Made by a program: the position numbers and the translations under genes. DNA of 64,000 nucleotides from assembly GCA_051294905.1 (NCBI GenBank), contig CM119372.1, forward strand, positions 20,276,001 to 20,340,000, read 5' to 3'. The notes under the pieces are model-generated. The model ran no database searches. It was not told the origin of the DNA and was given only the letters and a program-made list of their open reading frames with translations. Shown piece by piece: positions 5,001 to 64,000 of this stretch (the first letter of the stretch is position 1; each line of letters begins with the position of its first letter). Source of the DNA: Botryllus schlosseri. Taxonomy: Eukaryota.

Positions 5001-5869
5001 TTCATATTGATACTGTTGAGTTGGTCGGTTAACGGATTTACTTGACAATGTTTTCGTGGTTGATTCTTTGAATATGGTAAGATGGTCAGATGTCGAGACG
5101 TAATACTATTTCCGTTAACTCAATTACAACAAAACATAACCAGCATTCAAATAATCCGTAAGCTACAAGTGGATTTAAAACTTGATGCTGTTTTGTGGTT
5201 AACTCAAGTCAGTGGTCATATTTGTGTTGATTTCAGGAATGATCATGACGAGTTGGTCGGGTAAATTAGTGGTAGTAACTATGACCGTACAGAGTTGCTG
5301 ACATTCAAACATCTTTTACGCTGTAATATACGTATTTTATTGTGATAAATTATTTCTCAGTTATTGTTCAGACATTCAAATCTCGTATACTCAAAATATA
5401 ATATGTTTATGTCAAGTCATTTATGTGTCGATTAGTAAATAGCTTACTTTGTCTTCAGAATAGTAACGACCTTTACAATTGAATAAAAAGACCGATCATA
5501 TGAATACAACCAGAATGAATTAATTCAAATTTGTGAGTTGCAGTGGTATAATCAAGTAAGTGAAAACTAGATTTTGAACACTTGTTAATGTTGTAAATAA
5601 TTCTTTTGAGTATGGTAAGATGTTAAAAATGTCGCTTTGACAAACGAAAAGTCGGATCGCGAATAGAGTTGCAATGTTCCATTACTTGTTTCGAATCAAT
5701 GTGTGTATAATATCAATATGGGACTGTGGGAAAGTTGATAGCCATGTTTGTCAATCCTATTTCAATTCACACTACACCAAAGTCAAAATATTTCGTTTCG
5801 GATTATCTCAATTTACCTAGTACATCCCGCGAATGGATTCCGACCCATGCTATAACTAGATCGCTATAT

Positions 5870-7135: not shown

Positions 7136-8063
7136 CATCATGAGAGATCTACTATACTACTGAGGTGAATTGAAAATGACCCGACATGACTTCACTCGAG
7201 TCAAAAGCATAAAAGCGAAATTGACTTGAGACTTGAATCCTCATGACAAAGTTACAACTCTGTCGCAGCCCATACAGAGCTTAAGAAGTTGGAACAGATC
7301 CTTCTCCTGAGGAGTGGAGGAAATGGGTTGTATCTCTGAGGGAACACAACTTCTGTTTAAGGTGGAGAGTAATGTATAGCGATACGTTCCACCGCTGTAT
7401 CACCAATGATCGAGTCTGACCGGGGAAAATTAGGAATCCATTCATAACTGTTGGAGGTTTATCTGTAAGCTAGTCATCGCCACTCGATCCGTATAAGCGG
7501 TTATGTTTGAAAGCCGAGAACGAAACTGGGGCCGCGTGCTATATGTCGGCGACTCATGCACGAATCATATAGCAAAGCGTATTGTCCTGATGAAAACTGA
7601 TCAGTGACCATGGATGTCGAAAACCAAGAATAAACAACAACAATTGATGCCTTTGATGTGCAGTGTGTAATGTCTACACTGCTGTGCAACTTCTTTAGAA
7701 GAAGGAAGGCAACGCGAGGTAGTGACCGTTTCTAAATGGCTACATATTAGAAAAAAGGTTACGGAACCTTTGTTATGTGAAATTCATCACATTCAGAAGA
7801 TATTGACTACGGAGACAGCGGTATTGACAGTCTGTCATTACGAATAGATATATTTGCATAATCATACCTTAATCGTTCCAATCATGTACAGGAACTTGCT
7901 CGTATCGAAAGTGCAGACGGAATCTATAAGATTCTTCGTTTCATCCGGAACGCGGTCCGTAGGCAAGTAGAAACATTTCGGCAAATCCGGAGGCTTCGGT
8001 GGAGCGTTGTTTCTTAATTGTGGAAAATGAAAGCCCTTCAAAACTTCAACAATACGACTAGAG

Positions 8064-9320
8064 CAGTGGTTCTCAACCTATTTCTATTCGCGGACCCTTT
8101 GGATCATCATAGACCCCCGCGAACCCCCACAAGTTTTAGTTCAACTTGAGCTCAATTATCGTGCAACGGTCATCTGCCTTATGCAAATATCAACTATAGG
8201 CTAGTGATAAACAGCAGCAAAACGACTTAAAAAAACAACATCATCCTCTAAGAAGTAGTGAGCGATTTCCACAGCTGCATTTCTTGAAATACCTGGTCGT
8301 GTCTTGAAAATATCCACCTTCGATTTGATAGGAACGAGTGCCGAATAATATATATTTTTACAAAGATAGGTTGTCGCGAATGTAATATTAATGCAATAAT
8401 GCGTAACTAGGGATGAATTTAAAACAAACGATCTTTCAAAACACTTTGTTTAAAACATGTTTTAAACAGTGTTTTAAACAAACGCCTTTTAAAAAAACGT
8501 GTTTTTTGAAGTTGTAAAATTATGCCATAGTTGTGTAAATACTTTCCAAAAAAACATGTAGTGTGAGCCTACGGACAATTACCACCCGATTTAGCCGACG
8601 TATAACGATATGGGACGGTTGGAACTCTCAAAATAGTCGGTTCAACAGTTATATTACAGCTATTTTGTCAAAGGAGCTATATTTATCCTATATTTTCAAT
8701 TGTCAAAGTCAGCCCACAATTGAATATTCGTGAAGTCATGGCTTTAAAAAATATGTTTTAAATTAGGGCCTGGTTTTAAACATGTTTGTTTTCAATTGAT
8801 TTTTGTTTTAAATGCAACTCTATGCGTAACGGTTCCGACGATACCTTTGAGTATTATCGCAACATATATTGCACCAAAATTGAGAAAAAGATTTTATAAT
8901 GAACAAATCACGTCCAAACTATTCATTTCTATCTAGCAGCTCATCTTGAAGTTATCGTGGAATAGTGGTTGTTTATCACAGGGAAAAATGGATTCGGTGA
9001 TGAAGTTTAAATTTCATTTTTTGGGATTGATTACGAAAAAAACATTTTCCCCAAACCTCAACAAAACATCTATGAACAGCAATGTATCAGTAGGCTATCG
9101 GCAATTTGGTAATTAAAATGAGTCAGCACAGAAGAATATTTCATTTCATACGGTCATTCTGACGATGTCGGTCTTGAATATTTAGCAGTTATGAAGCGAA
9201 ATTGCCTCGTGATTTCCATATGAGAAAAATCTATACATATTGTATTATCAATCTTTATGCAAATTTAGAGGCTTCACAGACCCCTGAATATGCGTCGCGA
9301 ACCCCATTTGAGAATCACTT
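8064..9320. mobile_element. hAT (Charlie/Buster-type) non-autonomous element
   Basis: Termini CAGTGGTTCTCAA ... TTGAGAATCACTT. Perfect 8-bp TSD GACTAGAG (8056-8063, 9321-9328). FATTYLC-like remnant on the - strand near 8360-8385. Confidence 0.85.
8408..8822. mobile_element. hAT-type MITE nested in the 8064-9320 element
   Basis: TAGGGATGAATTTAAAACAAA ... TTTTAAATGCAACTCTA with perfect TSD TGCGTAAC (8400-8407, 8823-8830). Relatives at about 33425-33980 and a partial copy at about 37810-38004. Confidence 0.85.
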
Positions 9321-9608
9321 GACTAGAGTCATCTTTTATCGGTAACTGCATGACGCTTTCTACAAAGTGAACAACAACTAACTCATAACATTATGCTTGC
9401 ATTTCTATAGTAATTTTGTTCCTTGACGAGAACTTGTCTTAGTGCCTTTGAGTGTTTCCAGCTCGTGTGTTTAGTACAGGGCTGTCAAACATACGGATCG
9501 CGGACCGTACCCAGCCCTCCAGACTGTGTCATCAGGCCCGCGAAGCCATTCTGATTAGATTGCTTCCACCACATGTGTAACAAATTTTTAGATTTTTTAT
9601 GGGAGATC

Positions 9609-10597
9609 TAGGGATGGTGTGAACCTCTGAAAGGTTCAGGTTCGTGTGAACGCGAACCTTTTTGAAAGGTTCTGTGTGAACACGAACGTGAACCTCGTGA
9701 CGTGACGTGACGTCATATTGCTAATTCCAACCCTTTCTTTCAATGAAGTGATAGCCTAATATGCCCTATATTAATGTACACGATACCTAGCGAAGATTCG
9801 GCCCACATAATGCCACAATGCTGAAGTACATATCGGCGTTTTAAACGTCGCTAAATGTATCAACTGCGGTAATCAAAGGACATGATAATTGCATAAAATC
9901 AGTACATTCCGTCGCTTTGCCAACAATTTCGACGAGGACTTACGAAGGAATATAAGCTTACGCCTTAAAGGTCTTAGCCAGACCGGACAATGTGTTCGGA
10001 GTCTGAGTATTGCTACATTGATATTGAACAGAGTGTACAACGGGTTTCTATACTCGCTACCGATACCACAAACAACAAGTTATGCAGCAGTAGCACGCAC
10101 CTTAATCGTACGGATTTGGTTTTAATGATACAGTAAAGATATGAAGTCAAGATTGACCCAGTACGACCGTTCGATTTTTTACATCAGAAGACGATATCAA
10201 TGTCATTGATTGGTTGACTAAGCCTCATTCGCTGACTACGTATATCGATCGCGGGTCAGGCTCACAGCAGAGAGTCACTAAATATTCACAAACGGAAAGC
10301 TGGATATTCCGAGAAAATTTTTGCAACAAAGCAAGTAAAACTTTTAAGGTTGTCGAGGTACATGGTGCATGCTCGTTTAGTGTTGATTTTTTATGCTGCC
10401 AGCACCATGCATGGAGTGGCCCGCAGTTGAAATGCAATAAATTTGAGCCAAAGATCTTATAATGGAGTGAAAATTACAATTTACCAAAAGGTTCACAGTG
10501 CAGAACCTACCAAGGTTCTGTTGTGAACGCGAACCTCTAAATTTCCGAGGTTCACACACAGAGCGCGAACGTGAACCTCACGTTCACACCATCCCTA
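9609..10597. mobile_element. hAT-type MITE, TAGGGATGGTGTGAAC family
   Basis: TIR TAGGGATGGTGTGAAC / GTTCACACCATCCCTA. Inverted full copy at 51167-52145 and an interrupted copy from 41390. Confidence 0.85.
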
Positions 10598-12064
10598 GGA
10601 GATACATCCATTAAAAAATCCCTCAAGGCAACAAATGTCGACCATGTTCAATGGTCATAGGCCACATTATAGACAGTTAGACACCCGACTGCTGCAATTT
10701 GATTTCACTCTTGCTGTCACTTGGAACTAGTTGTTGACATTGACACTCAATTACGAGAAGGCAAAAAAGTGCACACCGAGTTCGAAGTTTTATGGAAAAT
10801 TGAAACAAAAAGCAGTTATTCACAGAAGCCAAAACGACAATGTGGAACAGTGAAATGCAGTTTACACGGATAATATATTAGATACACAAAAATTATTCAA
10901 ATATCTGTGGTCGCACTGCTTCGTCACTTTCGAGCCAAAAGTCCCCGGACTACAGATAAACCTGCGATATAAAAATACCAAACCAAATTCCAATGTCCGC
11001 GGTTACAGCACAAAGTATACGCAAGACTAACCCCAGATTACGTCTAAGATGAAGGTAGCACAGAGATAGACCAACTAATATCGTTGTTAGCGTCACTCCT
11101 TTAGAGCCTTATAGGTTTATATAATCATGGCCGTATTCAACCGTCCAATCATAGTATTTTTTGACAATTCTATTGTGTTTCTTGGCCATAACTATATTTC
11201 ATAGTGCTTTTCGGTGAGCCTTCGGCTCGATCATTACTTAACAGAAATGTATTTTCCATGAATATACGTAGCCTTGTGACCCATTCTTTGGAAATTGAGT
11301 TTCTATACATCAACCGAGATTTCGAGGCTCTCGCGGTGGGAAGAAAGTGTCGAAACTATATTTCGCGTTGATGAAATAATTGTTTAACGTAGTCATGCGC
11401 ATTATTTCGTAAAGAAACATGAGACGAAATTAATTCTGGACTTGGAATTAGATTTGAATCTTGTATCCGGAATAAGAATTGGTTTTGCAGGACACATCAA
11501 ATCCTCTCATCTCTGTTCCCAATCATCGCTCCGTACACCTGTCGTTCAACTCATTTCAACAGCATTGATATCATTGCATACTGGCTAGTACCATAAAATA
11601 GCCATACGCATCTATCTCACAGCTAAATCGCGTGATTGCGAGGAACGCTGTAATTTTACATACTTCCCTGAAATTCCTGTCGTTTGAGAGCTATACATCT
11701 GCAATTCGTCGCAGTCGCAGTAAAGCAATAATCTGTCTTTCGTGAAGCAGCAACGAGAAAGAATATCGATTGCTGGCGGTGATGATGCTATATTGCGTCA
11801 GATACATAATCTCTTCGTGTTTGACAGAGCCTGGTTTAAGTGCCTTACCGAACGCATAATGCTAGAATTAGAAAATTGATGACATCTGGACCGGCATGAT
11901 TTTTGCTCGACGTAAAGATCATACTGAATTTGACGACACAGTATGCTGCTGTAGTGCAGTGTGCAGAAAGATAAGTAGTAACAGGTTCGGACGAATTGTA
12001 AGGCTTGAATATGGACCTATAGTTTGAGCTTGGGTTAACTTAGTATCACGATGAGCGAAATACA

Positions 12065-12320
12065 TAGTCGCAGTGGAATCAAAGTAGCTTATGTCCATTT
12101 TAGACATTTTGAGAAAATTAACTTTACGTGAAGTTTTCATCTTCTTTCCGCCATATATTGGCCCCGATTAACTTTGAAAAAACCGACACAGACATTGATA
12201 TGGCCAAGATATGACCGAAAAAATTTCTAAATTTTCGAAAAGTTGATTGTTTCCAAGTTTTAAAAATGGAATTTTCAAATTTGAAAAGTGGACATAAGCT
12301 ACTTTAATTCCACTACGACG
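12065..12320. mobile_element. Small TIR element (MITE-like), superfamily not assigned
   Basis: Imperfect inverted repeat GTCGCAGTGGAATCAAAGTAGCTTATGTCCA ... TGGACATAAGCTACTTTAATTCCACTACGAC. Confidence 0.55.
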
Positions 12321-12532
12321 ATTTCAGACTTTGTGTCGATAGCTAAATCAAGACTCTATCTCCGTCACCTGTATTTCTTACAGAATAGCGGAAGCTGATA
12401 AAAATGGACCATAAAACGCGGATACATCGGAGACAGCGAAAAGAGAAAAATGTTTTTTCGGTGTAAAGAGACCGTCATAAAAGGAATACGGTCATATAAT
12501 ATCTCGACACTGGAATCTAAGTAAGCTGGAAG

Positions 12533-12860
12533 GGTGTCCGGTCAATACCGAGAAAACCATTACCGAGAATGCCATTACCGAGAATGGACACCACCGAGAA
12601 TGGACATTACCGAGAATGGACACCACCGAGAATGGACATTACCGAGAACACAATATATGCATTACAGGCATGTTATGCATATGCACAGGTCGTGTGTGTG
12701 CATCACGGCGTCGCCACGTTCGGTATCGATGCCCAGGTATAAATTTCTCGACAACGTCAGTCCCAGTAAGCTATATTCTTGACATTGGCCATTCTCGGTA
12801 ATGTCCATTCTCGGTAATGTCCATTCTCGGTAATGGTTTTCTCGGTATTGGTATAGAACC
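12533..12860. mobile_element. Mutator-like (MULE) foldback MITE with 16-bp tandem subrepeats
   Basis: GG...CC termini and a perfect 9-bp TSD AGCTGGAAG (12524-12532, 12861-12869). Arms are built of CCGAGAATGGACATTA units in opposite orientations. Confidence 0.8.
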
Positions 12861-13793
12861 AGCTGGAAGCGGGGCATAGTGGAAGACTTTTCCAAAACGC
12901 GGAGACAGGAATTTGTCGATAGATGGCTGGTCAATCGATGTCGCGGTGGACTTTGACATGTGAGGCCCTTCAATCGGAATACGGATTTAACACGCGGAAA
13001 CGGATAAAGACAAGCGTACAGGCATATATATACAATATAGATTCAGATCGGACGTATGGTAATAATAACAAATCAATGAACATCTCACACACTGTGACAA
13101 AACTCTTGTATATTGAAGCGCGATAGGCACACTTCCTGCAACATATAGTCGCTATGTGTTATCAAGGGACTTCCAATTCGCTAATAGCATATCGTGCAGA
13201 ACCGCAGGAAGGTAATAGGTTCGCATTGGAGAGAGCTTAAAACTTATAGACATTATGATTTTCCGCATTATTTTTGTAACGTCCTTCCTGTGAAATCTCC
13301 CTGAATTTCTCCGTTTCAGGCTCTTTCTCTCTCTCTCTCTCTCTCGTTAGAACCGTGTTTCTTAACCTTGACTCCAGCGACCCCAAGAGGTGATTTGCAT
13401 TTTGAAACGTTCATGGGCGATATGGGGGCGCTGGGCTCAGGGGAGCGGTCTAGGGTGGTCCAAAATATGGAAAATCTCAAAAATGATGCGTATCCATGTC
13501 TCATTCTTTAGATAAGTGGTTCTCAACCTTTTTTACCTCGCGGACCGGTAAAATTTCAAAAAATATCTGGCGGACCGGTGTACCTTAAAATTTGAAATCA
13601 ACCCAAAATGTAAAGTATGAAACGGTTTTTTGCAGGTATGGTACTAGAGAGTGACATTTTGAGGGGTTTGTGCATGATAGTATTCATGTAATTTGACGGT
13701 AGTTAGTCTACTGAGTCGATGTAAATTCCCATTACAGTCTTTCGCGATGAACGCCGTGGATTAACCGACTACGCCAACTTTATTAATATTCTA

Positions 13794-29010: not shown

Positions 29011-30072
29011 ATTACACATATAGATACGGCCGCATCCCAGCGAAGCCTCTAGAAGTTGAACACTACCCATACCCATCACCACATCCGTGAGAATATAAAC
29101 GCATAAACTATATATTCGTTCGATTTATATCATACAAGAATGATAGTAAATGTGAGCACTGCGCACTGGAAAGCACTGGGCCGTCTAAGAAACAAATAAG
29201 ATACGCATCTATTTGGTTAATCTATTGATACTGCGACAGCGTAAGCTGTGATCTTTCCGTTTGCGGTCAATTTATTTGTGATGTAACAATGGCGAATTAG
29301 TGAAACGTACAAACAGTAAATGACTGGTTGCTCTCACAAGTGACACCGGCGTATCGCGAACAGCCAGAACACACATAAGATCACCCTGATTTAATTAACA
29401 CCGTTTACCTAAAGACTTGAAATTGACTCGTAAATTTTGCTCCGAGTTACGAGTCAATCCACACTTCTGAAGTGCCGAGTCAAGTCAAGTCAAGCCAAGT
29501 CATACGAAAAAGATGACTCGAGTCATCCCAACACTGGTCCGCACCATATAGGACACTATGATGAAACCTTTGACAATGCTTGGGCCTTGAAGTCAGGCTA
29601 CTACGTCAGCAATAAAATAAACATCACGATGAAAATTTAACTTATCGCTGTCTTGGGGAAATATCTTAAGAAAAAGTATTGCCATGTCGCTCCGAAAATT
29701 ACATTTATAGTGCGCATTATGTTTACTTGAAGCTTTCGCGGGCCGCACAAAACGGTGTTCCGGGCCGCATGCGGCCAGCAGGCCGTAGTTTCCCCACCCC
29801 TGCCCTAGGGTGTACGAAACACCCGGTTGAAGAGCCCTGACTTGTAGTATCTTCCAGGCTATCCAATCGCAGTAAAAACATTAGTATAGCTGTAGCAGTA
29901 GCTTGGTAAAGATATGAGTGAAATCGAATGATCAATTATATTCAAATATATCTAATTATCAAAAATCATCAAATTATTTTGAAACACCCATTGTGGTATA
30001 ACTAATGAACGTCTCTCTCATTGTTACACCCTATATATACAGAGTGATAACCTGATAACTTATCGTTCTTCA

Positions 30073-33000: not shown

Positions 33001-36000
33001 GACCATATAGGTGTTCTAAAAAATGATACGCCCATACCTGTCGAATCGAATGCAAATTTATGATATCATCCCTATTATTCACAGACAAGAATGACACATG
33101 GTTATCGGAATACATACTGAAATCATACCACAACGATAGACCAAACGTAATCGAAACTCTCTGTCCGACGAGTACGGAAGAGAAGTACGCACTGGCGTGT
33201 AAAATGTACTGGGAGTATCAGAGTTTTCTTTCCTCGCGAAGGGTAAGCCGGAAAAAAAAAATTAATTTTGTCTCCTATATTTTTCTATATTTATTGACAT
33301 AGGGACAATCGGCAGCCCAAAGTCCAAAAACTATTCAGTCAATTTCTGTTACGAGTTCCCGGGAATATTCTGCTGTCACGCTGTTGTCGCCGGGACAGAT
33401 CCATTGCTTTAGCAGGGGAAAAAGCAGGGTTGCATTTAAAACAAAAAACAATTTAAATCAAACGTGTTTAAAACAAGGCCCTTGTTTAAAACATGTTTTT
33501 CTTGTTGTTTTTTAGCCATGACGTCACGAATATTTAATTGTGACGCCACAGTGGATTGGCATTTACAATTGAAAATGTTAGGTAAATATTGCTCCTTCGA
33601 CGAAAAGGGATTCCAATCACTGTTATCAACAGACCGAAAATATCTTTAACCAGGACTTCATCGTTATTCAGCATTTTTACGGTCGGCGGTCATCATCATC
33701 AGAACACACATTACGTACCAATGATCTATATCTACATGCAGAAACTGTTGAACCGACGACGATTTCGAGGGTTCCAGCCACCCCACATCGTATACGTCGA
33801 CTATTTTGGGTGCAAATCGTCCGTAGGCCCATGCTACATGATTCTTTGGTTGTATTTCCACAATTACGGCATAACTAGACGTTTGAAAAAATTTCAAAAA
33901 GGCATTTGTTTAAAACACTGTTTAAAAATGTTTTAAACAATAAAGAGTTGACAACACCGTTTGTTTTAAATGCAACTCTAGAAGCAACCAACTATGATTA
34001 AATGAAATAGGACATTAGCAAGCTGTATCGTTTCGGTTGTTCGCCAAAAATTCTCAATATCCCGACTACGTATTCCCACAGAGCTGGTTCTGTCATTTCG
34101 ATGACGACGCATACGTCAATGTACGCATGCTCTTGCGTGTCTTGAAACAATTTTCGAAGCATCAATCGGTCTATCTCGGAAAGTCTCCTTCGCGAAAGCC
34201 AGTTACGGCGATGGTCTACGAATCTGCCAAGATCGAGCCAGAGGTATGAACCATGAACTTACTGCATTGGAATATAAAATCGGCAGTTGCAACTCTTCGC
34301 TGACAAGTCAAAGCAAGCAATCACATGATTCGCGTTCTATGCATTAAAACCCACGTTGGGTTAGCAGTGGGTTGGGTCCGTAAACGTTTGAGATTTGCTG
34401 TAAATCCTGTACATAATTTTCCGAGCAGCTCCATTCCTCTGTCAGGTCCTTGGCAAGAACGAAACCAGCGATGAACCAATCTGGTTCATGCGACAGAGAC
34501 TCCAAAGACGGGTCTCCTTTCACTACGCCCTCGGCGGTGCAGGATTTTGTATTTCAAGAAAACTTGCGATTGCAATGAAGCCACACGCCACTGCGCCACA
34601 GTTCATAAGAACTGTCGCCTCCATTGCGCTGCCAGATGATTGTGTCGTAGGATTCATTATCACTCACATTCTTAATGTTTCTCTCATTAGCGCAGACTTT
34701 TTTCATGCGCACTTGGAAGATCTTCAAGCGATTCAAGAACCCGATCTTCTAAGTCAGGTATGTATAATTCCCTTCTTACTTAAATTATAGTGTCTCTTCT
34801 TGAAGCAGACCATGGTAATTAGTTAAAATATAATTTTTACGAAATACGATATGAGATTGATCTACAGACATACTTTAAACTAGGAATAGTGGCCTATGAA
34901 TGATGGCACGAGGACATTATCTTATCTATAAACCAGTGGTGGGATTACTCGAGTCAGACTCAAGTCACCTTTTTCTTATGACTTGACTTGACTCGAGTCA
35001 CTTTGCTAAAATGACTTGACTTGACTTGACTCGGCGTATCAGAAATGTGGATTGACTCGTGACTCGGAGCAAAATTCACGAGCCAATTTCGAGTCATCAA
35101 GCAATCGATGTCGATAAAAATCATTGTGTCTTGCATATGTTCGGATTGTATACGCGAAACACTGGTGTAACCCGTGAGAGCGACCAATCATTCAATGATC
35201 GCGCGTTTTACTGAGCCTCCATTTTTCTCACACAAATAAATTGATCGCACACGAAGTGATCGAAGCTTACAGCTTATGCTGTCGTAAACTATAGTCTAGT
35301 AAAGTAATGTAATAGCAAAATGTCTATTTCTGTTCTCTGTTCTTAACTTAACCAAACCTCTTGATTTATTGAAATTGAATTCCAATATAGTTTATGTAGT
35401 CCTCAACCATTAGCGCGAGCTGGAATTGTATCATATAAATTTGTAACTGGGTAATGGATTGCTTCTTATCAGTTCGTTTCTCTATTCTCTATTTTGGCTG
35501 GTAACTATAATCCGAGGCTATGCTATTACTTACGTAGTTTAGCATTTCTACGTATATGTGAGCAATGAAGCACCCTCTTGCGTTCATATTTTACTCTATA
35601 TTCGTTCATGAATCCAGAATCAGTGGCCACTCAAACTGTATTTCTGACAGCTAGCAAAATGCAATGACGCAAGCATGCCTCATACTTCGAAAAGGCAACT
35701 TGACTGGAATTGTGACTTGACTCGTGACTTGACTTGACTTGACTTGACTCGACTTGACTCGAGTAACCTCCAAAAATCGAGTTACTTGACATGACCAGAG
35801 TCACCTTCGAAAATCGATTGACTTGACTTGACTCGAGTCAAAATGTGCAATGACTCGAAATGACTCGTGACTCGAAGGTAGTGACTTGATCCCAATACTG
35901 CTTTACATATATATGCTACCGTATGCGTATGATGTTACCCTTGATCAAAAGTCATTTCGGAATCACGAAGGTTCAACTATACGATTTCCACTGTTTGATG

Positions 36001-41389: not shown

Positions 41390-43700
41390 TAGGGATGGTG
41401 TGAACTTGAGGTATACGTTCGCGTTCTGTGTGAGATGTGAACCTCAGAAATTCAGAGGTTCACGTTCACAAATGAATCTTGCAGTGATGAGCGGATATTT
41501 ATTTCTGAGAATCCGAATCCATCCGACACCTCGGGTCTCTGACGTACTATCCGTCCAAATCTGAACAATCGCAACCAAAAATCCACGCGAATCCGAATAA
41601 TGCCGTCCAGAATCCGAATAACTTTTCCGTAGAATCCTAATTGTACATCATAGCAGAGAAGTCGTTACAAATGTTAAGGTTAGAGTTAACTGATTTATAT
41701 TTGCTTGCAACTTGGACAGAACAGCTTTAGATTGCCACAAGTCCTATCAGAACGTGTTTACTGTCCGTGTTTGGTTGTCGAGCGGACTATTTTTTTTGAC
41801 TCCGGCTGTAATAAAATGTTGCAAAATCCGGTCGGAACACTATCCGAATCCGTCCAATGCTCATCACGAGAACCTTGGTAGGTTCTGCACTGTGAACCTT
41901 TTCCATATATCACAATTTTCAACTTCATTATAACATCTTTGATTGAAATTTTTTGCATTTCATCTGCGGGCCACTCTATATGCATGGTGCTGGCAGCATA
42001 AAAATCAACTCTAAGCGAGCATGCACCTTGACAATTTCGAAAGTTTTACTTACTTGTTACAAAAGTTTGCTCGAAATATCCAGTTTTCCATTTGTGAATG
42101 TTTGCAACACCAGCTTTCGACTAAGACCAATTATATTAAATTCCATCGCTCGAGTCACCAGATATAGCACTACCGATCAGTGTTGGGATGACTCGAGTCA
42201 CCTTTCTCGTATAACTTGACTTGACACGAAACACTTTGCAAAAATGACTTGACTTGACTCGACTCGGCGTATCAGAATTGTGGATTGACTCGTGACTCGG
42301 AGCAAAATTCACGAGTCAATTTCAAGCCATCAAGTAATCGGTGTCGGTAAAAATCACTGTATCTTGCATATATTCTGGTTGTTCGGAAACGCTGGTGTAA
42401 CCCGTGAGTGCGACCACTCATTCAATGATAGTGCTTTTTACTGAGCTGCCATTGTTCTCTCACAAGTATATTGACGAAAAACAAAGTTATCAGAGCTTAC
42501 AGCTTACGTTGTCATAAACTATTAGTAAAGTAATTTACTAGCAAAATATATATTTCTGTTCTCTGTTCTTCTCTTAACCAAACCTCTTGTTTTATTTAAA
42601 TTGAATTCGAATATAGTTAATATACTCGTCAATCACTGGGGCAGGCTCGAACTGTATCGCATTGATATGTAGGTGGGTAATGTATTGAATCTTATCAATT
42701 CGTTTCTCTGTTCTCTATTCTCTATTTTGGTTGGTAGCTATAAACTGGGGCTATGCAAACATTTACGTAGTTTAGCAATTCTACGTAAATGTGAGCGATA
42801 CAAGACTTTCCTACGTGTATATTTGCCTCTACATTCGTTCATCGGTTCAAAATCCATAACCATTCAATCTGAATGTCAAACAGCTAGCAAAGTGCAATGA
42901 CGTATCCATGCCTAATACTCCGGAAAGACAACTTGACTTGAGTCGAGTCACCTTCGAAAATCGATTGACTTTACTTGACTCGAGTCAAAATATGCAATGA
43001 CTCGAAATGACTTGTGACTTGAAGGTAGTGACTTGATCTCAACACTGCTACCAATTATGCTATTTTTAGATTGCTCAGCAATAACAGAGACTGCTTGACC
43101 AAGCGTAACGACGGGTTTCGAAGGAGTTGCGTATCTATCCGTAGGATAGTAATTTATAATTTAAGCCCGAATATAGCACATACAATTATTATATCGCTAA
43201 TTAATCAAGTGGTCCTTGGGCGCAATTCAAGCGTGAAATATTTATAATAATGAAGTCCCGATCCGAAACTGGACTTCATCACTTACCCATTGTTGTTACA
43301 GTCCCTAAAATAGAGGGCCGTCAGACCCAGGTAAGTTTTAAAAGGGAGCGCTGGAGGGAAAAAAAGGTAACGAACCACTGGTTTAAATCATAAAAACCAA
43401 ATCCGTGTGGGTGTTGGCTACTCCTGTTTAACTTGTTGATAGGATAATATCGGTATCAAGTATAGAGAGCCAATTTACATTCTGCTCAATATCAATGTAG
43501 CAATACTCAGACGCCGAATACATTTTGTAGCAGCCTACATTCGATGACGGGTAAAAAGCCAGTATGTACTTCAGCATTGTGTTATGTGGCCCGAGTTATC
43601 GCTACAGGTATCGTGTACATAAATATATCAAGTCACCGAAATGTGGAGATGAAATTAGCAATATGACGACAATTGACGTCATGAGGTTCACGCCATTCCT
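41390..43700. mobile_element. Interrupted TAGGGATGGTGTGAAC-family MITE with nested insertions
   Basis: Family homology at about 41390-41481, 41870-42105 and 43385-43700. Interrupted by a CAGTGATGAGC element (about 41482-41868) and by the MITE at 42178-43047. Confidence 0.65.
42178..43047. mobile_element. GACTCGAGTC-rich hAT-type MITE
   Basis: CAGTGTTGGGAT ... ATCTCAACACTG with TSD CTACCGAT / CTACCAAT. Confidence 0.85.
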
Positions 43701-53700: not shown

Positions 53701-55173
53701 TTACGGTGGCGTTCTGAAGAAAACGGCTGCGGCCAAAATTTTTCTTTCGTTTTGTCCTTCAATTTGAGACCAAATCAATTTTAGAGTGCAGTGCCCCTTT
53801 AATGATCTAGACTCGGCCTGAGATCACCAGTCCAAGAACAGGAAAGCGTGTCTAAGCCTAAACAGTGTAGTTCGAATTACAAACAGGATATTGCAACGGT
53901 CAGTAGATAAACTGCCCAGAGACCTAATAATTAGATGTAATGCAATATAAACATTCATCAGACGTAAGACACCAATGTGCTTACTCTAATTTTATTTTTT
54001 AACAGCCTCTAATACTTGGTTAGGTACACAAGTAAAGAACACTTGTTACATATCTAATGTGTAATAGTTGAAGAAAGTCGAAAGTGCCAGCATGATAAAC
54101 GCAAAATTCTGGTCCAAACCAACATGAATATGTGCCAAAATTCCAAAACTTTGCAATCAAACATGTCAAATGACTCTGGCATCGGGTGATATTACCTGTG
54201 ACGTAGTTCGTACATGGCGGATGTTTCTGAGCAACTGATACCGATTCCACAGCGACGTATTCCTCTCGCACAGAAAAATTCTCTCAAACTTTGCAATATA
54301 AACGCATCAAGAGCGTTCCTCACTTGTGAACTAGAAAAGTACAGCTATCAACAAGTTTTTAGAATTATACTTCCAAACGACAAAAGTTACATACTCACTG
54401 TTGAGTTTATTTAAATTATTCCACGTCAGAAAAAGTGAGAAATATGGACAATTTTCATATGCACTCATCCGGATATTCATTCGCAGCATTCGCACCACGC
54501 TTGTCATTCGCCCCAATTATTTTCATTCGCACACGTGCAAACAGTCACACATAGGTCGGAGAGCACTGCTGTAGCTCATTGTCATTTTAACAGTCGTCGC
54601 ACCGGAGAAAATTTTCAGGAACCTATCGGCTATTTTCTGATCTATAGTTAGCGGAAACGGGAACTAGAAAAATCTTCCGTAAAATGATTCGAAGAAAAGT
54701 TCTTCATCGTGACGACGTTAGAGTGACCTGATGATCATGCTCAAGATATAGCCCAGGCGATTACGGTATATGACGAAAGGAAATGAAGTGGTAGTAATAA
54801 TGACCGAATTCTCATTTTGATAATGGTAATAATCATGGACCTCCGTCATGCTCTCCTAGGTTATGACCTATATGGCTGTACATTTTTTCAGCATAACAAT
54901 ACATTGCTATCACAAACGATATGACACATGCACAATGCACGTATTCTTTAATGCGGGCACCGGAAAACCAGGGCAAACGCTTTAGTCGGCCAGAATGTTC
55001 TGGAACGGAACAAAAGTGAAAATAGCACGTAAAAACTCCGGTTAATACGAACAACGATCCACTTAATCGGACGCAGGTTTGCAATCCCTATCATGTTATG
55101 GCACAATAAACAGTTTTTCGTACGTTTTAACACAGGATGAGTGATTGTAGAGAAACGATGACGATGCATGCAG

Positions 55174-55480
55174 CAGTGTTGGGATGACTCGAGTCATGAC
55201 TTGACTCGAGTCAGACTCGAGTCAACTTTTTCGTATGACTTGACTTGACTCGAGTCACTTTGCAAAAATGACTTGACTTGACTTGACTCGGAGCTTCAGA
55301 AATCTGCATTGACTCGTGACTCGGAGCAAAATTTACGAGTCAATTTCAAGTCATTAAGTAAACAGGGTCGATTAAATGAATGTATCTTGTGTATGTTCGG
55401 ATTGTTCAAGATACGCCGGTGTCACTTGTGAGAGCAATCAGTCATTCACTGTTTGTACGTTACACTGATCCTCCATTGTT
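55174..55480. mobile_element. 5' part of a CAGTGTTGGGAT-family MITE, interrupted by the AGTAGT element
   Basis: Homologous to 42178 onward and 34934 onward until CCATTGTT at 55480, where homology stops abruptly. Confidence 0.85.
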
Positions 55481-58400
55481 AGTAGTTATGTAGATCGGTC
55501 GTGAGGTGGCAGGGGTTCTTATGGCGGGGTGGTGACTCGTATTGAAAACCGGGGGTGGTGACTCGTACTTTCAGACCCCCCTTGTGGTGGTGACTCGTAA
55601 TGGGTTCTTATGGGTGCGGTCGTGATTCGTACTTTCGGGTATAGGCTGCGGCGGTGACTCGTATTGAAAACTCGGGGTCGTGACTCGTACTTTCAGGTAT
55701 AGGCTGCGGCGGTGAATCGTAATGAGAACTCGTGGTCGTGATTCGCACTTTCAGGCATATCTCGCACGGCGTTGAATAGGTATCAGGAATAGTAAATAGT
55801 CACGTGATTGATTCTTAGTTAATGTGTATATTACAAATTATTAAATATGACCGATTCGAGTTAATCCCAACGTTTGCGGTGAATGCGACTTCGATATATC
55901 GTTATTCTTATGGGTGCGGCGATGATTCGTACTTTCGTTGATAGAATGCTAGCGGTATGTCGTACTTTCACCAAAAAGGGTGTGAAATAGTTTGCTAAAT
56001 CTAGGAATCAGTCGCTTGGTAATTAGTTTACCACGGAGCCGGCGTAGACGGCGATTCCAATACCAACAATAGCCGCGTTCACATATTAACACTCCAAATA
56101 GGTGTGAAATAGTTTGCAAACCCTGCGATCGCTGACAAGATAATGTCTCAGACATACGCGACTTGATGTTACAGGCATATCGATCACTCACGCGGTGAAA
56201 TTTTCGTAAGCAGTTTGGGACAGAGCTTGATTTCAGTCGTAAGATTTAATATGTAACGAATAACAGACCGCCAGTGTCGGTAACTTGAATAGCGACAAAT
56301 TGCCACTTATTTCCGCTCTAACCCTAATCCTTTGTGAAGTGAACGCTTATTCAAAAAGGTGTGAAATATTGGTAAAATCCCGCGACCGCTCACAAGATAA
56401 TACCTAAGACATAACCATCGCTCGCGACTCGCTGTTACATACATGCCGATCGTTGACAACGTAATATTTCGGTAATTAGTTTACCACAGAGCCGGCGTAG
56501 ACGGTGATTCGAATATCAGCAATAACCCCGCTCACAAACTAACAGTTCGAAAAGGTGTGGGATAGTTTGCTAAATCTGGCATATGGTAATGTTTTGGTAA
56601 TTAGTTTGTCCCAGAGCCGGCGTAGACGGTGATTCGAATATCAACAATAGCCGCGTTCACAAACCAACACTTCAAAAAGGTGTGAAATAGGTTACAAATC
56701 CCCCGATCGCTCACAAGATAACACCAAAGACATAGCCATTTCTCGCGTCTTGCCATTACATACATCCCAGTCGCTACAGTGTAATATGTCGATGGTTGTT
56801 GCTATCAAGTAATAAGTAATGAATACCAGTACCAGCACAGACCGTGATTCGAAAACCAACAATTTGTCACTTGCACGCGATCGCTATATGTTTTGACACT
56901 TCGCACCGTTTTCACATCTATAGAATCAATACCAACTATAATTCTACAAGAATCAGGAATCACAAGTATGCGCATTATACAGTTATTGTCTTTATTAACT
57001 TGAAATCAACCTCTTAACAAAAACACGCATCTTATCACTTGTCAACTCTATCATGAAAATCCTCGAGTCCTTATCATCAAAAATGTTATAGCGCGGCGTC
57101 GGAATCCATTCGCGCGGTGTTCTAAAGTTAAATCCAGATAATCCAAAATGAAATATTTGGACTTTGACATAGTCTGAATTGAAATAGATTGACAAACATG
57201 ACTAACAACTTTCAACCCAGTCATATTTAGAGATTATACGCACATTGATTCGAAACAAGTAATGAAACATTACAACTCTATTCGCGACCTGTCTTTACGT
57301 TTGACAAAGAGAGTTTCAGAAATATTATCACTATGACATCTCAACATTTTAACATCTCGCCATCAACAAAAGAGTAAAATACAAAAACCTTGTCAAGTCA
57401 ATCCGTTTGTAACTCACCGAACCAAAGCAAAAAGTGTCCATACGAAAAGTAGACAAGACTACACAAGTAATCACTACAACCCACAATCACAACCCACAAT
57501 CACCCACATATCAAGTTCGGTTTTAGGCATATACCACCAACTCGTCTTTTTTGTTCAACTGTAAAAGTCGTTACTATGCCGCAAGACCAAGAAATTACTA
57601 TGCGGTATATTTTGTAAGATAAAAGTAATTTCTACTCGGTGCAGGTGACTTGAGATTAACACATTACATTTGAGTATACGAGATTTGAATATCTGACCAA
57701 CGTAGTTTCTTACAATCGAACGCTGGTGTTATATTCGAAGTTATCATGCTGTAAACATAAGGATTGACACATTGATTTGACATATGTAATAGTTGATCAT
57801 GACTTGATTATTAAATTATTTGCGTTAATTAGACCCCGCGTTGTGGTAAATGTTATGACAGCAACAAACTTTTCAGTACCAATGTTATTAACATATTTGG
57901 CTGTAAAACTATACTTGTCTGAAATGTTCTTGATGGGAAAATTACTCCACCTTGGTAAAAATCACTCTGCGTATCGCGGATATCAGAAAATATTTCCAGT
58001 AACCAAGACTAAAGATGAAACGACAATATCGGTATTATTACATTCAACAATCAGTACAATTATTAAAATCTATCGTTTGCGATAAACAGCACTAAAGATG
58101 TAATAATTCCAGTATTCATACATTGAACATCCGATACAAAATGCTTTATTATCCCGATTCCCAACGGGTAATTGAAACGACTAAGTGTAGAATCAGTATA
58201 TCACAATATCGTTACTATTGAATCCAACGATTTATTGTCGGAATTTGTGACAGAGAATTTAAACATATGCACTTTACAGAGTGTGAAAATATCACTTTGA
58301 GTATCGAGTACCGTTCGAAGCTAGCGATCAATTCTTAATCATTTCAGTAACTCCCCATTGTGCGTGCTAAATGTAAAATATCGCGAGGTTATACACTCTA

Positions 58401-61400
58401 AGACTTTGATTATTGCAAAAGTAAATTGTGATATGTTTGTTAGATGCATCCAATTCAACTAGAAGTGTCCAGTGCTCAACACTCGTAATATCGAAAAAGT
58501 ACTTGCTACACTGTTATTTGCTAAACGTGTTTTGTATTGTTGTTCATTTGTAGTATTGATTGAAATTGTTCTTGAACCCTCAAATAATAATTCCCGACAT
58601 GAAACCAAGCCACTGAAAGTCGTTACCATCACGAAGATACAATGTGGACGATGTTTGTCAAATGTGTCCTACCTGGCCAACAGAAAACAATTTTCACTAG
58701 CTTGGTAATGAAACCGAAGTCTCCATTCGATATTTTGTTTGTGTCAAATACTTTGCAATGAACACATTTGCGTGGTTGAGCTTTACATCATCAAGCTGTT
58801 ATTTGTAAATCAAGATTTCGGTAAACTTGTAAATGTATCGTTTAACTAACTGACATTTAGTGACTGGGGACCACACCAAACGATACACATCCATTTCCGA
58901 AATACTGCATTGATCTTAATTTCCATCATCGTGATAATCGAAGTACATTTCTTTCCAATTCATAACAGCCGACTATGACATGATAAATTTTTGACAAGTT
59001 ATGCCTAAAAGATTGATTGCATATCACTAAAAATAATATACCACACATATTATTACTGTTACTCCATTCATCGGTATTTTTTCCGTTGTCGATTTTCAAA
59101 CGAGTAAAATTTATTACTTGAGTTGCTCTGCTTAATGTAAATGTAAACTCGCCCGTCTTTCAACAACAAACAATGTTAAAAAAGTATGCAATCAAACACA
59201 ACAAGTTTACGATACTAATTATTATCCCACATAACCCATTTCTTACCGAAGACATATGAAATATATTCATGTTACACGAAAACATTCGCTCATGCTACGA
59301 ACATATACGCAATGATTGGTGACACTTTCAAACTGTTTCGATGTCACAAGAACTTTATTGTCTGAATGGTTGTTCATGTATCTTAATAATCAAATAGTTC
59401 AACACAGAACTAGTACTAACAGAAACATCAGAGTTGTTTACACAAAAGTTTGTATGTGTACAGTATGCGAATACCATGTGTAAGTCCAGCAAAATTGTGG
59501 ACGAGTTTAGTTAACACAATTTACGACACCGAGGTCGCTTCATCTTTCGTAAGACAACAAACCAAGGCTTCAGGATATCTCCATGTCATAACAATAAATC
59601 ATAGCTACTCCAACAACAGAGTACATATGTTTTCTAGTTACGGTGCTTACATCTTACACACAAATCAATCTACTTTGCTAACGAAAAGTGGTGAGTCATC
59701 GTATGGTTGTCCTGACAACTAAAACATACTATCATACAAAATGGTCGTTATAGTTTGCACACCAACGGTAGATCGTACAAGTAACAAGTCTCGAGAATCC
59801 AGTTATTCAAAAAACGTGAAAGTATTTCTACACCAAGTCGTTATGTTGACGAAAGCGTATATTGTAATATCATGATCGATTTGCATTCGTTGGTCACAAA
59901 CTGTCACTACTCTAAATAATTTTTTTTTCACTCAAACACAAACGCATACTTGTCACCATTCGTTTTCATCAAGCATGAGTTCAAGAAACTTACTACGACA
60001 TGAATTTTTATTTTTATGTTATGTAAATAGGTAATAATTAATTCAAGTAACACTATATCAACATCATCGAGTTGTGCTAATAGATTTACATGTGGTCTTG
60101 TGGTTTTCGTCGGGACATACAGCACGAACTAACTGTAGACTCCTCTCTGTTGTACAGCTACTCGGTAATCGAAATGCATTAACATGTAAACAACGATCTT
60201 GTTTCGTCACACCAAAAATATGTTCACTGTCGCGATACTCCGCACAAGACGTGCATAGCCTTTTCACACTCGTAATAGTATACCGACGTCAAGCGATAAC
60301 GTTTAACAAGACCAACGACACTGAACCAACGACGTTTACCTATGTAAAATTACCACTTTCACTTGCCAGTCCATCGTTTACCTGACTAAACATATTATTT
60401 TCCTTTGGAGATCTGACGTTTACCCAGAGTAAGAAACCATTTTCACTTGTAAATATTTTTTTTTCCTCGGCTAACAAACCTTTTTTCACTTGGAAATATA
60501 TTTTTTCTCTGGGTAACAAACCTTTCTCACTTGGAAATATATTTTTTCTCTGGTTAACAAACCTTTTTCACTTGGAAATATATTTTTTCTCTGGGCAACA
60601 AACCTTTTTCACTTGGAAATATATTTTTTCCCCAGGTAACAAACCTTTTTCCCTGAGCAACAAACCATTTTCACTTGTGGGTCCGTCGTTTACCCGAGTA
60701 AAAATATCATTTTCCTTTGGAGATCCGGCGTTTACCCAGTGTAACAATACATTTTCACTTGGAAAAATACTTTTACCTAGAGTAACTAATCATTTTCTCC
60801 TGGGGTAACAAACCCCCTTCGTCTGGAAACTATCATTTAACTGAGCAACAAACCATTTTCACTTGGAAATACATTTTTTCTCTGGGCAACAAACCTTTTT
60901 CCCCGGGTAACAAACCTTTTTCCTGAGCAACAAGCCATTTTCACTTGGTGGTGCGTCGTTTACCTGAGTAAAAATATCATTTTCCTTTGGGGATCTGACG
61001 TTTACCCAGTGTAACAATACATTTTCTCTTGGTCATCTAGCTTTTCCTAGAGTAACAAAACCATTTTCATTTTGAAATCTGACAAACACACCTGACAATT
61101 TGGTATTTGTTGTATTGACGATAGTTTGAAATAGATTACAACGAACAGTGACGGAAATATACACAGACTACCGGTTTCAGAGTATACTCCATCGGTCGTA
61201 TCACATCAATATCATCGGTTAACCACATACAATATGCTCTTGTACACCGAAATACATGTTTTGGAAAATTGGACAATAGGCTTCGATAGTTCTGTGATGT
61301 CCGGGTTCGTGCTTTGGATTTTCCAGAGTCAAAATGTCTGAATAAAACACCTCCTTGACGACGGTTGGTATGTGGATAACGGTGTTCGGAAAACGGTTGG

Positions 61401-62244
61401 ATTTATGTCACCCATCGCGATAACAATTCCTGGTCGAGTTTTCCTCCCGCATGTTTACTATATTGTGTCTTTATTGGTCAATGTATGTCTCGACATTCAG
61501 TTTGAAATCGGAATTGATAAAGTACGTAACCGGATCCGGATATCAACTGTGAATCGTTAAACCAATGAACAAAATTCAAAGTAAACATGTTACACCCTGT
61601 GTTTCCACGAAAAAATACCATCCAGACATACGTCGCGCTTGTTTGCCCACACCAGTATACGCGTAAATGGAGGTGTGTGACATTGCATGCAATGTGTTGG
61701 TATACAAACATAGATCCACAGACATTATCATAGCCGGTAGCTTTGATGTAGATCGAATGTCACCCGATAACAATACCAATAAGCCACATTGCAATGACTC
61801 TGAGTCCGCGCTATTACATCGATATTTCGACACCGTTCACTGATTTACTCGATGGTTTCATCGCGTTGTAACATTACAAGATAGTCATGACCCTATCTCC
61901 GGACAGACCACCCAGATCAATTGGATACATTGGTCAATATCCGTCGTGTTGTCGACACCGAAGTTTTCTGCTGCAGCGTTCGACCAATGTGAACTATCGA
62001 AGTACGGTGCTCGAAATGATTGCGATCAGTCTTTCAGTCACGATGCATGGATGTCGCTACTCCCACATAACGACTCCAGATAAATATCGTGAACAGTGAT
62101 TCTGCAAATCTCGACTGATACTGTGACCCAATAAGGTGTGGTTCTGTGGAATGAAGACTGCAATCGTACACCACAATAGAACACTACCTCGTGATTTCAC
62201 ACGTAATCATAAAACACACCTTCGTAAGGACCCAGTTCGTCCGG

Positions 62245-62480
62245 CGACATTTCGAAACGACCATCGCCACAAGAGATCGGGGTTTCAGTTTGTCATATCG
62301 GTAACATTTTGAAACGGTATCGCGCAAAGTTATTGACGTCGATTCAGTTGGTCATATCGGTGATATTTTGAAACGGCGTCACCACAAGGCTATTGACGTC
62401 GCTCTCAGTTAGCTGTATCGGTAGCATTTTGAAATTTTCATCACCACAAGACTATTGACATCGATTCAGTTGGTCATGTC
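62245..62480. repeat. ~59-60-bp tandem repeat, about 4 degenerate units, in the foldback spacer
   Basis: Recurring ATTTTGAAACGG...CACAAG...TATTGACGTCGATTCAGTTGGTCATATCGGT. Confidence 0.8.
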
Positions 62481-63081
62481 AATCCGTTTCACAATCTGTC
62501 GTTTTTCAAGTCCCAGCACCATAGTGTTACGACACAGACAAGAAGCGTCGGTGGAAATAATAAAACACGGAAGGCACACTTTGGTGTTATTTGACATGGG
62601 TTTTACACCAGACGAACCTCACATTCAAGCGATGTATTTGAATGACGATTGTATTATTGATGTCCAGGCAAAAGAAATGTATCGATTAATTGGTTTCGTA
62701 CATATCCAACAAAAACCAGGGTATATGATTGTGCATGGTTCGCATATTCGAGTGTGAACGCTCTATTGATATATAGTTCACTTTCACCATCGTGCGAATA
62801 ACCCATGTTACGGTTCCATGTTTGTGTGTCTGTATGTCATGCTTCAGATTGACTCAGAGTCATTGCAATGTGGCTTATTGGTATTGTTATCGGGTGACAT
62901 TCGATCTACATCAAAGCTACCGGCTATGATAATGTCTGTGGATCTATGTTTGTATACCAACACATTGCATGCAATGTCACACACCTCCATTTACGCGTAT
63001 ACTGGTGTGGGCAAACAAGCGCGACGTATGTCTGGATGGTATTTTTTCGTGGAAACACAGGGTGTAACATGTTTACTTTGA
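62455..63081 (+). CDS. Putative spliced orphan gene crossing the spacer/right-arm junction
   Basis: ORF 62455-62757 and ORF 62818-63081 join in frame through a candidate 96-nt intron 62752-62847 (CGA|GTGTGA...GCTTCAG|ATT). No family recognised. Confidence 0.3.
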
Positions 63082-64000
63082 ATATTGTTCATTGGTTTAA
63101 CGATTCACAGTTGATATCCGGATCCGGTTACGTACTTTATCAATTCCGATTTCAAACTGAATGTCGAGACATACATTGACCAATAAAGACACAATATAGT
63201 AAACATGCGGGAGGAAAACTCGACCAGGAATTGTTATCGCGATGGGTGACATAAATCCAACCGTTTTCCGAACACCGTTATCCACATACCAACCGTCGTC
63301 AAGGAGGTGTTTTATTCAGACATTTTGACTCTGGAAAATCCAAAGCACGAACCCGGACATCACAGAACTATCGAAGCCTATTGTCCAATTTTCCAAAACA
63401 TGTATTTCGGTGTACAAGAGCATATTGTATGTGGTTAACCGATGATATTGATGTGATACGACCGATGGAGTATACTCTGAAACCGGTAGTCTGTGTATAT
63501 TTCCGTCACTGTTCGTTGTAATCTATTTCAAACTATCGTCAATACAACAAATACCAAATTGTCAGGTGTGTTTGTCAGATTTCAAAATGAAAATGGTTTT
63601 GTTACTCTAGGAAAAGCTAGATGACCAAGAGAAAATGTATTGTTACACTGGGTAAACGTCAGATCCCCAAAGGAAAATGATATTTTTACTCAGGTAAACG
63701 ACGCACCACCAAGTGAAAATGGCTTGTTGCTCAGGAAAAAGGTTTGTTACCCGGGGAAAAAGGTTTGTTGCCCAGAGAAAAAATGTATTTCCAAGTGAAA
63801 ATGGTTTGTTGCTCAGTTAAATGATAGTTTCCAGACGAAGGGGGTTTGTTACCCCAGGAGAAAATGATTAGTTACTCTAGGTAAAAGTATTTTTCCAAGT
63901 GAAAATGTATTGTTACACTGGGTAAACGCCGGATCTCCAAAGGAAAATGATATTTTTACTCGGGTAAACGACGGACCCACAAGTGAAAATGGTTTGTTGC

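Follow-up and report, generated by a model that had tools for sequence, protein, structure and literature searches.

What is a palindrome of nearly 14 kb that has the ends of a Polinton but none of its genes, and what keeps its two arms alike? The question is raised by a 64,000-nucleotide stretch of Botryllus schlosseri DNA (hereafter the window; C2:20276001-20340000, within a 495.5-Mb assembly of 219 contigs), whose right-hand edge falls inside an inverted-repeat element that an earlier note, made from the letters alone, had described as a giant foldback element with a Polinton/Maverick-type terminus. The evidence set out below makes it likely that the element is a gene-less, non-autonomous, palindromic derivative of the Polintons (or Mavericks) that carries only cis signals, is mobilised in trans, and has its symmetry kept along the lineages in which it is passed on.

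The whole element runs from window position 55481 to 69176, beyond the window edge (C2:20331481-20345176; 13,696 bp). At the left junction, DNA resembling a miniature inverted-repeat transposable element (MITE) and ending ...CCTCCATTGTT gives way to the element's start, AGTAGTTATGTAGATC (in longer form, AGTAGTTATGTAGATCGGTCGTG), and at the right end ...ACATAACTACT (longer form ...CATAACTACT) is followed by ATTGTT and then by ACATCACAAATA. The ends read AGTAGT...ACTACT, i.e., the (AGT)2//(ACT)2 motif of Polintons and Mavericks, and ATTGTT is present on both sides as a target-site duplication (TSD) of 6 bp, the length that goes with this class. The MITE that the insertion interrupts resumes past the right-hand ATTGTT, and an uninterrupted paralogue lies elsewhere in the window: the left flank aligns to window 29525-29285 at 83.8% and the right flank to 29290-29062 at 77.6%, and because the bases common to both alignments are the 6 of the target and no others, this empty site confirms the TSD. 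The left flank also aligns to MITE copies at window 34947-35226 and 42190-42456. These two copies, the one at 29062-29525 and the interrupted one at 55205-55480 are 81-84% alike and have GACTCGAGTCA/GACTTGACTTGAC-type internal repeats.

When the genome was searched with the element's first 600 bp, a 100% inverted copy was returned at C2:20344577-20345176, the last base of which is window position 69176. The two arms (element positions 1-6326 and 7371-13696) are 6,326 bp each and 99.953% identical with 0 gaps, the 3 arm-to-arm mismatches lying at window 57086, 60021, and 61573; within the window, 60657-61806 and 62851-64000 form 1,150 nt of 100% complementarity, 1,044 nt apart. The arms account for 2 x 6,326 of the 13,696 bp (92%), so that, as in foldback elements, they constitute the bulk of the element, and comparison of the spacer with its own reverse complement gave only 12-nt chance matches and no self-complementarity. 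The outermost 280 bp (55481-55760) have a GC content of 0.529, versus 0.37 in the remaining arm, and contain 58-nt units together with five or six GG[TC]GGTGA[CA]TCGTA motifs; this block probably holds putative binding sites for the integrase or the terminal protein-polymerase of a helper. Tandem arrays take up ~0.8 of the 6.3 kb of the arm (55615-55759 and about 60429-61069), and the arms thus consist mostly of unique sequence rather than largely of the tandem subrepeats expected of FB or Galileo. The features listed in the earlier note (a sharp boundary at 55481 starting AGTAGT, GC-rich subterminal repeats, ~6.3 kb without long open reading frames, a 1044-bp spacer, and an inverted copy reaching the window edge) are all present in the sequence; the size it gave, about 13.7 kb with ~6.3-kb arms, agrees with that found, and its forecast for the DNA past the window (a right end at about 69176, ACTACT, the TSD ATTGTT, and the MITE resuming) came true to the base.

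No genes were found in the element, as the note had also said. The longest stop-to-stop frame inside it, within the window, is 140 aa long and lies in the 41/42-bp tandem array (60386-60808), and none of the 31 element frames of at least 60 aa (0/31) has a Pfam match at E<=0.01. Searches of 55000-64000 with Rfam at E<=0.1 and with ARAGORN for tRNAs gave no match, and in a raw RNA run there were 76 reads, mostly partial fits and concentrated on the flanking MITE. Among 16 family copies, tblastn detected no coding remnant of the open reading frames of the autonomous element described below, and no transposase of another kind was found in them. Polintons are defined by pPolB plus a retrovirus-like integrase, according to the available text of PMC5499653. 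The element encodes neither, and can therefore only be a non-autonomous derivative of a Polinton.

The link to coding Polintons is provided by an 18,263-bp element of the same genome, C1:5923771-5942033, which starts AGTAGTGTAGTAGATCGCTCGTG and has AGTAGT-N6-GATCGCTCGTG ends, a TSD (GCCGAG), and terminal inverted repeats (TIRs) of 443 bp. Its coding content comprises pPolB (PF03175, found in a frame of 1,214 aa), an integrase that combines an rve core and a chromodomain, and a packaging ATPase of the A32-like type; as a lead only, a 432-aa frame is nearest to clusters with a double-jelly-roll-like domain (score 0.98). Its TIR matches our element at 75% over 167 bp (element positions 57-222), copy C6 of the family at 92% over 188 bp, and copy C1_3.27M at 88% over 376 bp; these differing matches indicate that palindromic subfamilies share different parts of a Polinton end. 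A terminal 23-nt pattern, including GATCG[GC]TCGTG, is common to the coding and the palindromic elements. When one arm and the spacer are compared with the autonomous element by tblastx and blastn, matches are confined to the terminal region and to two short stretches next to it in the subterminal part. The element at 55481 is, then, an insertion with Polinton hallmarks, the ends of which are homologous to those of pPolB/integrase elements of the same genome, and the Polinton affiliation proposed in the earlier note is supported by ends, TSD, and TIR homology alike.

Potential helpers are numerous. With one pPolB protein query, 38 loci were scored of 438 candidates, and 34 of them are without a stop and 92-95% identical to one another; many autonomous Polintons with uninterrupted polymerase frames are thus candidate helpers. 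A PF03175 profile search of the genome gave no match, but its 14 control genomes gave none either. At C4:13828462-13846640, we found an 18,179-bp pair with both 35-nt ends within 2/35 letters of those of the element.

The element is one of a large family. Genome matches to AGTAGT-N6-GATCGNTC number 1,156 forward and 1,143 reverse, as against 6 and 14 for the reversed control, a distance that rules out chance as the source of the end motif; in the window, the terminal pattern has 2 matches versus 0.04 expected. This count, for which the earlier note had asked, takes autonomous and palindromic copies together and amounts to about a thousand terminus pairs. The first 100 listed termini, all on contig C1, yield 34 plus/minus pairs with the same 20-mer at both ends and leave 32 termini unpaired. 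By length, 20 of the 34 pairs fall at 12.86-15.49 kb (median 13.8 kb) and 6 at 16.8-18.3 kb; the remaining ones are 2 short pairs (3.3 and 6.6 kb) and 6 at 23.7-41.8 kb. All 10 copies fetched by end similarity (our element included) have inverted arms of 3.9-6.8 kb that are 99.39-99.98% identical, two of these copies having a 3-4-kb insertion in one arm and one a 100-N assembly gap, and 7 further C1 elements chosen by length comprise 4 palindromes, 2 short derivatives (TIRs of 369 and 878 bp), and 1 coding element. Symmetry was also assessed by comparing two 400-bp pieces, each taken 3 kb inward from an end, in C1 elements in listing order: 12/16 elements of 12.8-15.5 kb are mirror-symmetric at >=99.4%, and 0/4 elements of 16.5-18 kb are symmetric at this depth.

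Relative to our element, the other copies are 67-96% identical. Of 12 other copies, 9 have a spacer homologous over its full length, 2 one that is partly homologous, and 1 one that is not, and the boundaries between arm and spacer lie at the same homologous bases. Since most of the arm is unrelated to the autonomous element and the loop is conserved, the palindromic architecture of the family is, as far as sequence comparison can tell, inherited and not remade from a helper each time. A perfect 6-bp TSD together with AGTAGT ends is seen in 16 of the 18 family elements with both ends read, and the TSD is 6 bp long in 16/16 elements with direct (non-inverted) flanks.

Some individual members of the family merit description in their own right. 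At window 1-7161, on the minus strand, there is a second family member with a terminus AGTAGTATAGTAGATCTCTC ending at 7161, the whole arm and first spacer part of which align to element positions 1-6493 at 71-89%. The window therefore begins part-way through a further giant palindrome, with the other arm situated upstream of it. The family palindrome at C1:22802719-22819844 has 4.3-kb arms and, at its centre, a non-LTR retrotransposon (a long interspersed nuclear element) with uninterrupted frames of 848 aa (endonuclease and reverse transcriptase) and 396 aa (RNase H), which is an insertion. A 20.9-kb family locus at C11:19809676-19831540 (copy C11:19810176-19831040) has partly duplicated, 100% identical arm/spacer blocks on either side of a 100-N gap and is probably a mis-assembled palindrome.

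How the arms come to be so alike is best judged from the family as a whole. Arms within a copy are 99.39-99.98% identical, versus 67-96% between copies, and the note's suggestion of recent transposition or active homogenisation of the arms is in line with this: in none of the full copies examined does arm identity fall below 99.39%, and copies differ from one another by 4-33%. In the element's own subfamily (defined by the 35-nt end with <=2 mismatches; 28 termini, 12 pairs), 12/12 pairs have identical 35-mers at both ends, even where the pairs differ. Copies of intermediate arm identity (95-99%) are absent among 17 full copies and 12 window pairs. The intact TSDs in 16/16 direct-flank elements suggest that the sampled insertions are young and that their arms were already symmetric at integration.

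Two loci show symmetry that extends beyond the element proper. C9:7513343-7540465 is a 27-kb compound in which an outer element with the TSD GACACA encloses an inner one (7519577-7533687) without a TSD; the inner element sits in the outer spacer and is bordered on each side by one and the same piece of that spacer, ~400 bp or more long, in inverted orientation. Foreign DNA located at the axis has been made symmetric in this compound. In the family copy at C8:27584292-27598740, the ends lie at position 410 of this interval and at the mirror position, within inverted flanks of at least 409 bp and with no TSD; the flank sequence belongs to a different repeat family with at least 40 copies at 89-94%. 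A search for a same-axis outer element around this copy gave, at the predicted positions, two 1-kb pieces that lack a terminus and do not match each other.

The few mismatches between arms are clustered (10/10 in the inner 1 kb in copy C7; 14/18 in the outer 17-142 bp in copy C5), and most clusters lie in tandem arrays (those of the inner arm, in copies other than our element) or at one replaced end. Because clusters coincide with arrays or with an exchanged end, the spread of mismatches does not separate the two models of homogenisation weighed below. Two observations concern such exchanges. In C5:15395876-15408821, the ends differ at 14 positions in bases 17-142 and the other 5.9 kb of the arms at 4, which looks like the exchange of one terminus for that of a different element. 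Bases 254-1850 of our element are 92-96% identical to copies C6, C12, C11a, and C11b, the outermost 1-250 bp 67-77%, a mosaic that suggests a swapping of ends between lineages.

In the reading that we favour, the element would contribute nothing but cis signals (its AGT repeat at the terminus and its subterminal repeats), and integration, and probably protein-primed copying, would be supplied in trans by autonomous Polintons; to judge from the shared ends, such trans-mobilisation is probable. For the terminal repeat of vertebrate Mavericks, a role in "jumping back" during protein priming is proposed in the available part of PMC8097293. Symmetry would be kept along transposing lineages, not just since insertion, as we infer from the near-identical arms and identical ends of every copy in lineages that differ by up to one third. 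The means could be a single-stranded snap-back (hairpin) intermediate of replication or transposition, in which the two arms anneal to each other and any mismatch or heterology is either corrected or copied back; alternatively, arm-to-arm gene conversion could act in chromosomal source copies. The data fit both, and we consider the snap-back intermediate slightly more likely than chromosomal gene conversion, in view of the symmetry already present at integration (intact TSDs) and of the narrow length range. A single-stranded "racket" intermediate was reportedly proposed for Polintons in the Kapitonov-Jurka model and is said never to have been observed.

Several findings sit uneasily with the view that the element is a trans-mobilised Polinton derivative. 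Only the outer <=1.6 kb of the arm resembles a Polinton, and the remaining ~4.7 kb does not. The count of helpers depends on that one protein query. The earlier note had advised looking for an autonomous Polinton that shares the terminal ~300 bp; none with the subterminal sequence of the element's own subfamily was found, the best match being the coding relative at 75% over 167 bp. Four of the 16 C1 elements tested gave no symmetric match, 3 of which still match the family arm at shifted positions, and 2 of the 18 elements with both ends read have no TSD (the copy on C8 and, on C9, the inner element). The junction of the C9 compound was not found elsewhere among 40 scored of 1,427 candidates, and being unique it gives no sign that the compound has moved again as a unit. 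Finally, sequencing runs X1, X4, X11, and X24 gave short unitigs at very high summed depth, none of which usefully spans a junction.

The closest competitor accepts the same element and the same helpers and has arm identity kept purely by intrachromatid gene conversion in the chromosome, with no hairpin intermediate. Gene conversion maintains arm identity in large sex-chromosome palindromes and plastid inverted repeats, arms 1 kb apart are ideal conversion partners, and the patchy arm mismatches (C7, C5) agree with it; the inverted flanks of at least 409 bp around the C8 copy look like symmetry spreading into neighbouring chromosomal DNA, and a conversion tract with inner-arm and outer-arm homology at its limits could account for the C9 flanks. 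Conversion in place would, however, have had little time in insertions as young as the perfect TSDs of the 16/16 direct-flank copies imply, and it has neither copied nor erased the large one-arm insertions of C12, C1_15.7M, and C1_3.27M. The lack of copies with 95-99% arm identity also counts against it, and fits either model only if old copies have been lost. On balance, we take this account as a serious possibility that falls somewhat short of an even chance. The elements could instead be foldback transposons of another superfamily (FB/MULE-like, i.e., Mutator-like, or P-like as Galileo), their AGTAGT ends and 6-bp TSDs being coincidental. Long inverted arms, internal tandem arrays, and a lack of genes do give them the classical foldback look, but the homology to a pPolB/integrase TIR goes well beyond a 6-nt motif (75-92% over 167-188 bp and 88% over 376 bp), the autonomous copy has the same TSD length, and the 16 family copies contain no other transposase, all of which makes such an origin very improbable.

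Might the palindrome be absent from the organism and reflect an artefact of assembly or of foldback reads? Long-read assembly is known to fail at long, perfect palindromes, C11:19810176-19831040 has its 100-N gap between partly duplicated arms, and no spanning read pieces were obtained from the sequencing runs. An artefact would nonetheless not be expected to have unique flanks with a 6-bp duplication and an empty-site paralogue, or 3 mismatches between its arms, or to recur at dozens of independent loci with TSDs and arm differences of their own and a homologous asymmetric spacer, and family words occur at high depth in runs from at least 3 studies; we find this explanation barely credible. 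Nor does a locus kept by the host appear at all likely, in which read-through double-stranded RNA and small RNAs would silence Polintons. The structure would indeed give a perfect 6.3-kb hairpin RNA with ends common to Polintons, but what is shared with the autonomous element is its non-coding ends only, with no coding sequence, and about a thousand dispersed, young, TSD-flanked insertions look like a parasite rather than something that the host selects for.

The trans-mobilised palindrome that we favour may be taken one step further, to a proposal we regard as doubtful but worth stating: the family would be a polintovirus satellite, with a gene-less snap-back genome copied by the helper's pPolB via a full-length hairpin that re-symmetrises the arms in each cycle, packaged in the helper's capsids and integrated by its integrase. 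If this were true, it would make sense that length is held near 13.8 kb across subfamilies that differ by up to one third, and that DNA inserted at the axis (C9) is mirror-symmetric. A length of 13.8 kb is about 76% of that of the 18.3-kb coding element, and adenovirus vectors have a similar lower packaging limit. The coordinates of the features at the locus are collected in Table 1.

Table 1. Features of the insertion locus, in window positions
Feature	Positions	Strand	Basis
Left half of the interrupted MITE; its final 6 bases (55475-55480), ATTGTT, are the left TSD copy	55205..55480	.	
Terminal motif AGTAGT-N6-GATCGGTC; (AGT)2 is the Maverick/Polinton end motif	55481..55500	+	
GC-rich subterminal repeat block	55481..55760	+	repeat analysis, GC
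Left arm, 6,326 bp, non-coding	55481..61806	+	alignment; no Pfam, Rfam or tRNA match
41/42-bp (21-bp half-unit) tandem arrays of the inner arm; mirrored at 63583-63998	60429..61069	+	
Loop: asymmetric spacer of 1,044 bp, with a 59-bp repeat (x 3.2) at 62284-62477	61807..62850	.	
Start of the right arm; 5,176 bp more past the window to 69176, ending ACTACT, then ATTGTT	62851..64000	-	

Comparison with known systems places the family among Polintons, which it resembles in its (AGT)2//(ACT)2 ends, 6-bp TSD, TIRs, and ends homologous to a pPolB/integrase element, whereas its palindromes, at about 13.8 kb, are shorter than the coding Polintons of this genome (17-18.3 kb). Foldback elements include Drosophila FB, sea-urchin TU, and Chironomus TFB1, and the TSD is 9 bp in FB and 7 bp in Galileo; in the present family it is 6 bp. 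Galileo is a foldback transposon of the P superfamily (PMC3573991, in the text available). With FB, Galileo, TU, and TFB1, the family has in common long arms, internal tandem repeats, mostly gene-less copies, and compound or nested forms; it differs from them in its 6-bp TSD and AGT-repeat ends and in arms that are several times longer and mostly unique sequence, the tandem arrays of the element amounting to about 1 kb of the 6.3-kb arm. Vertebrate Mavericks, as described in the accessible sections of PMC8097293, have (AGT)2//(ACT)2 or (AG)3//(CT)3 ends, a 6-bp TSD, TIRs of 402 +/- 276 bp, and a size near 17 kb; compared with these, our element is gene-less and its inverted repeats are 6.3 kb long.

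A different parallel is offered by the hairpin derivatives of protein-primed replicons, such as the defective genomes of adenovirus and the hairpin plasmids of Kluyveromyces. Snap-back or copy-back defective genomes are defined in the portion of PMC13506859 available to us, and that of PMC11161782 mentions a deletion derivative of kalilo, a protein-primed plasmid, that forms hairpins (citing Vierula and Bertrand 1992). Like the family, snap-back genomes are symmetric palindromes with the same replicon end twice and belong to the class with protein priming and strand displacement; they depend on a helper, as the family probably does. They are, however, episomal by-products made of parental sequence, whereas the family palindrome is old and inherited as such, its loop is conserved, the greater part of its arms shows no relation to the helper, and it is integrated with TSDs at about a thousand sites. 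Transpovirons, too, are reduced, capsid-less dependants within the Polinton-centred class, linear and with inverted terminal repeats, and as far as the available text of PMC5499653 describes them, they are about 7 kb long, retain several genes, among them one for a helicase-pPolB fusion, and are carried by giant viruses.

In the literature searched, no paper turned up on non-autonomous Polintons of palindromic or foldback form, and the only match for "non-autonomous Polinton" and its variants was PMC5499653, the available text of which concerns other elements. New here are the link to a coding Polinton, now put to the test, the count across the genome with its length distribution, the conserved loop boundaries, the compounds with inverted flanks, and the exact confirmation at the locus. 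Polinton surveys that go by hallmark genes and short TIRs cannot see such palindromes: a survey of coral polintoviruses used hallmark genes, TIRs of <=2.5 kb, and a loop of >=9-15 kb, and the word stem "palindrom" does not occur in the part of it that is available (PMC11131425).

By extrapolation, about a thousand terminus pairs would come to roughly 10 Mb, or about 2% of the 495.5-Mb genome. A thousand perfect 6-kb palindromes are an assembly hazard, as the one gapped copy illustrates, and they are likely hot spots of rearrangement. To our knowledge, the replication and movement of Polintons and Mavericks have never been shown experimentally. Given trans-mobilisation, which the shared ends make probable, the family would show which cis sequences suffice for mobilisation and that the machinery works efficiently in trans, and any model of replication has to account for its strict mirror symmetry, its conserved loop, and the narrow range of its lengths. 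Should the satellite proposal prove true, nature would have provided, in these copies, evidence for the single-stranded "racket" intermediate.

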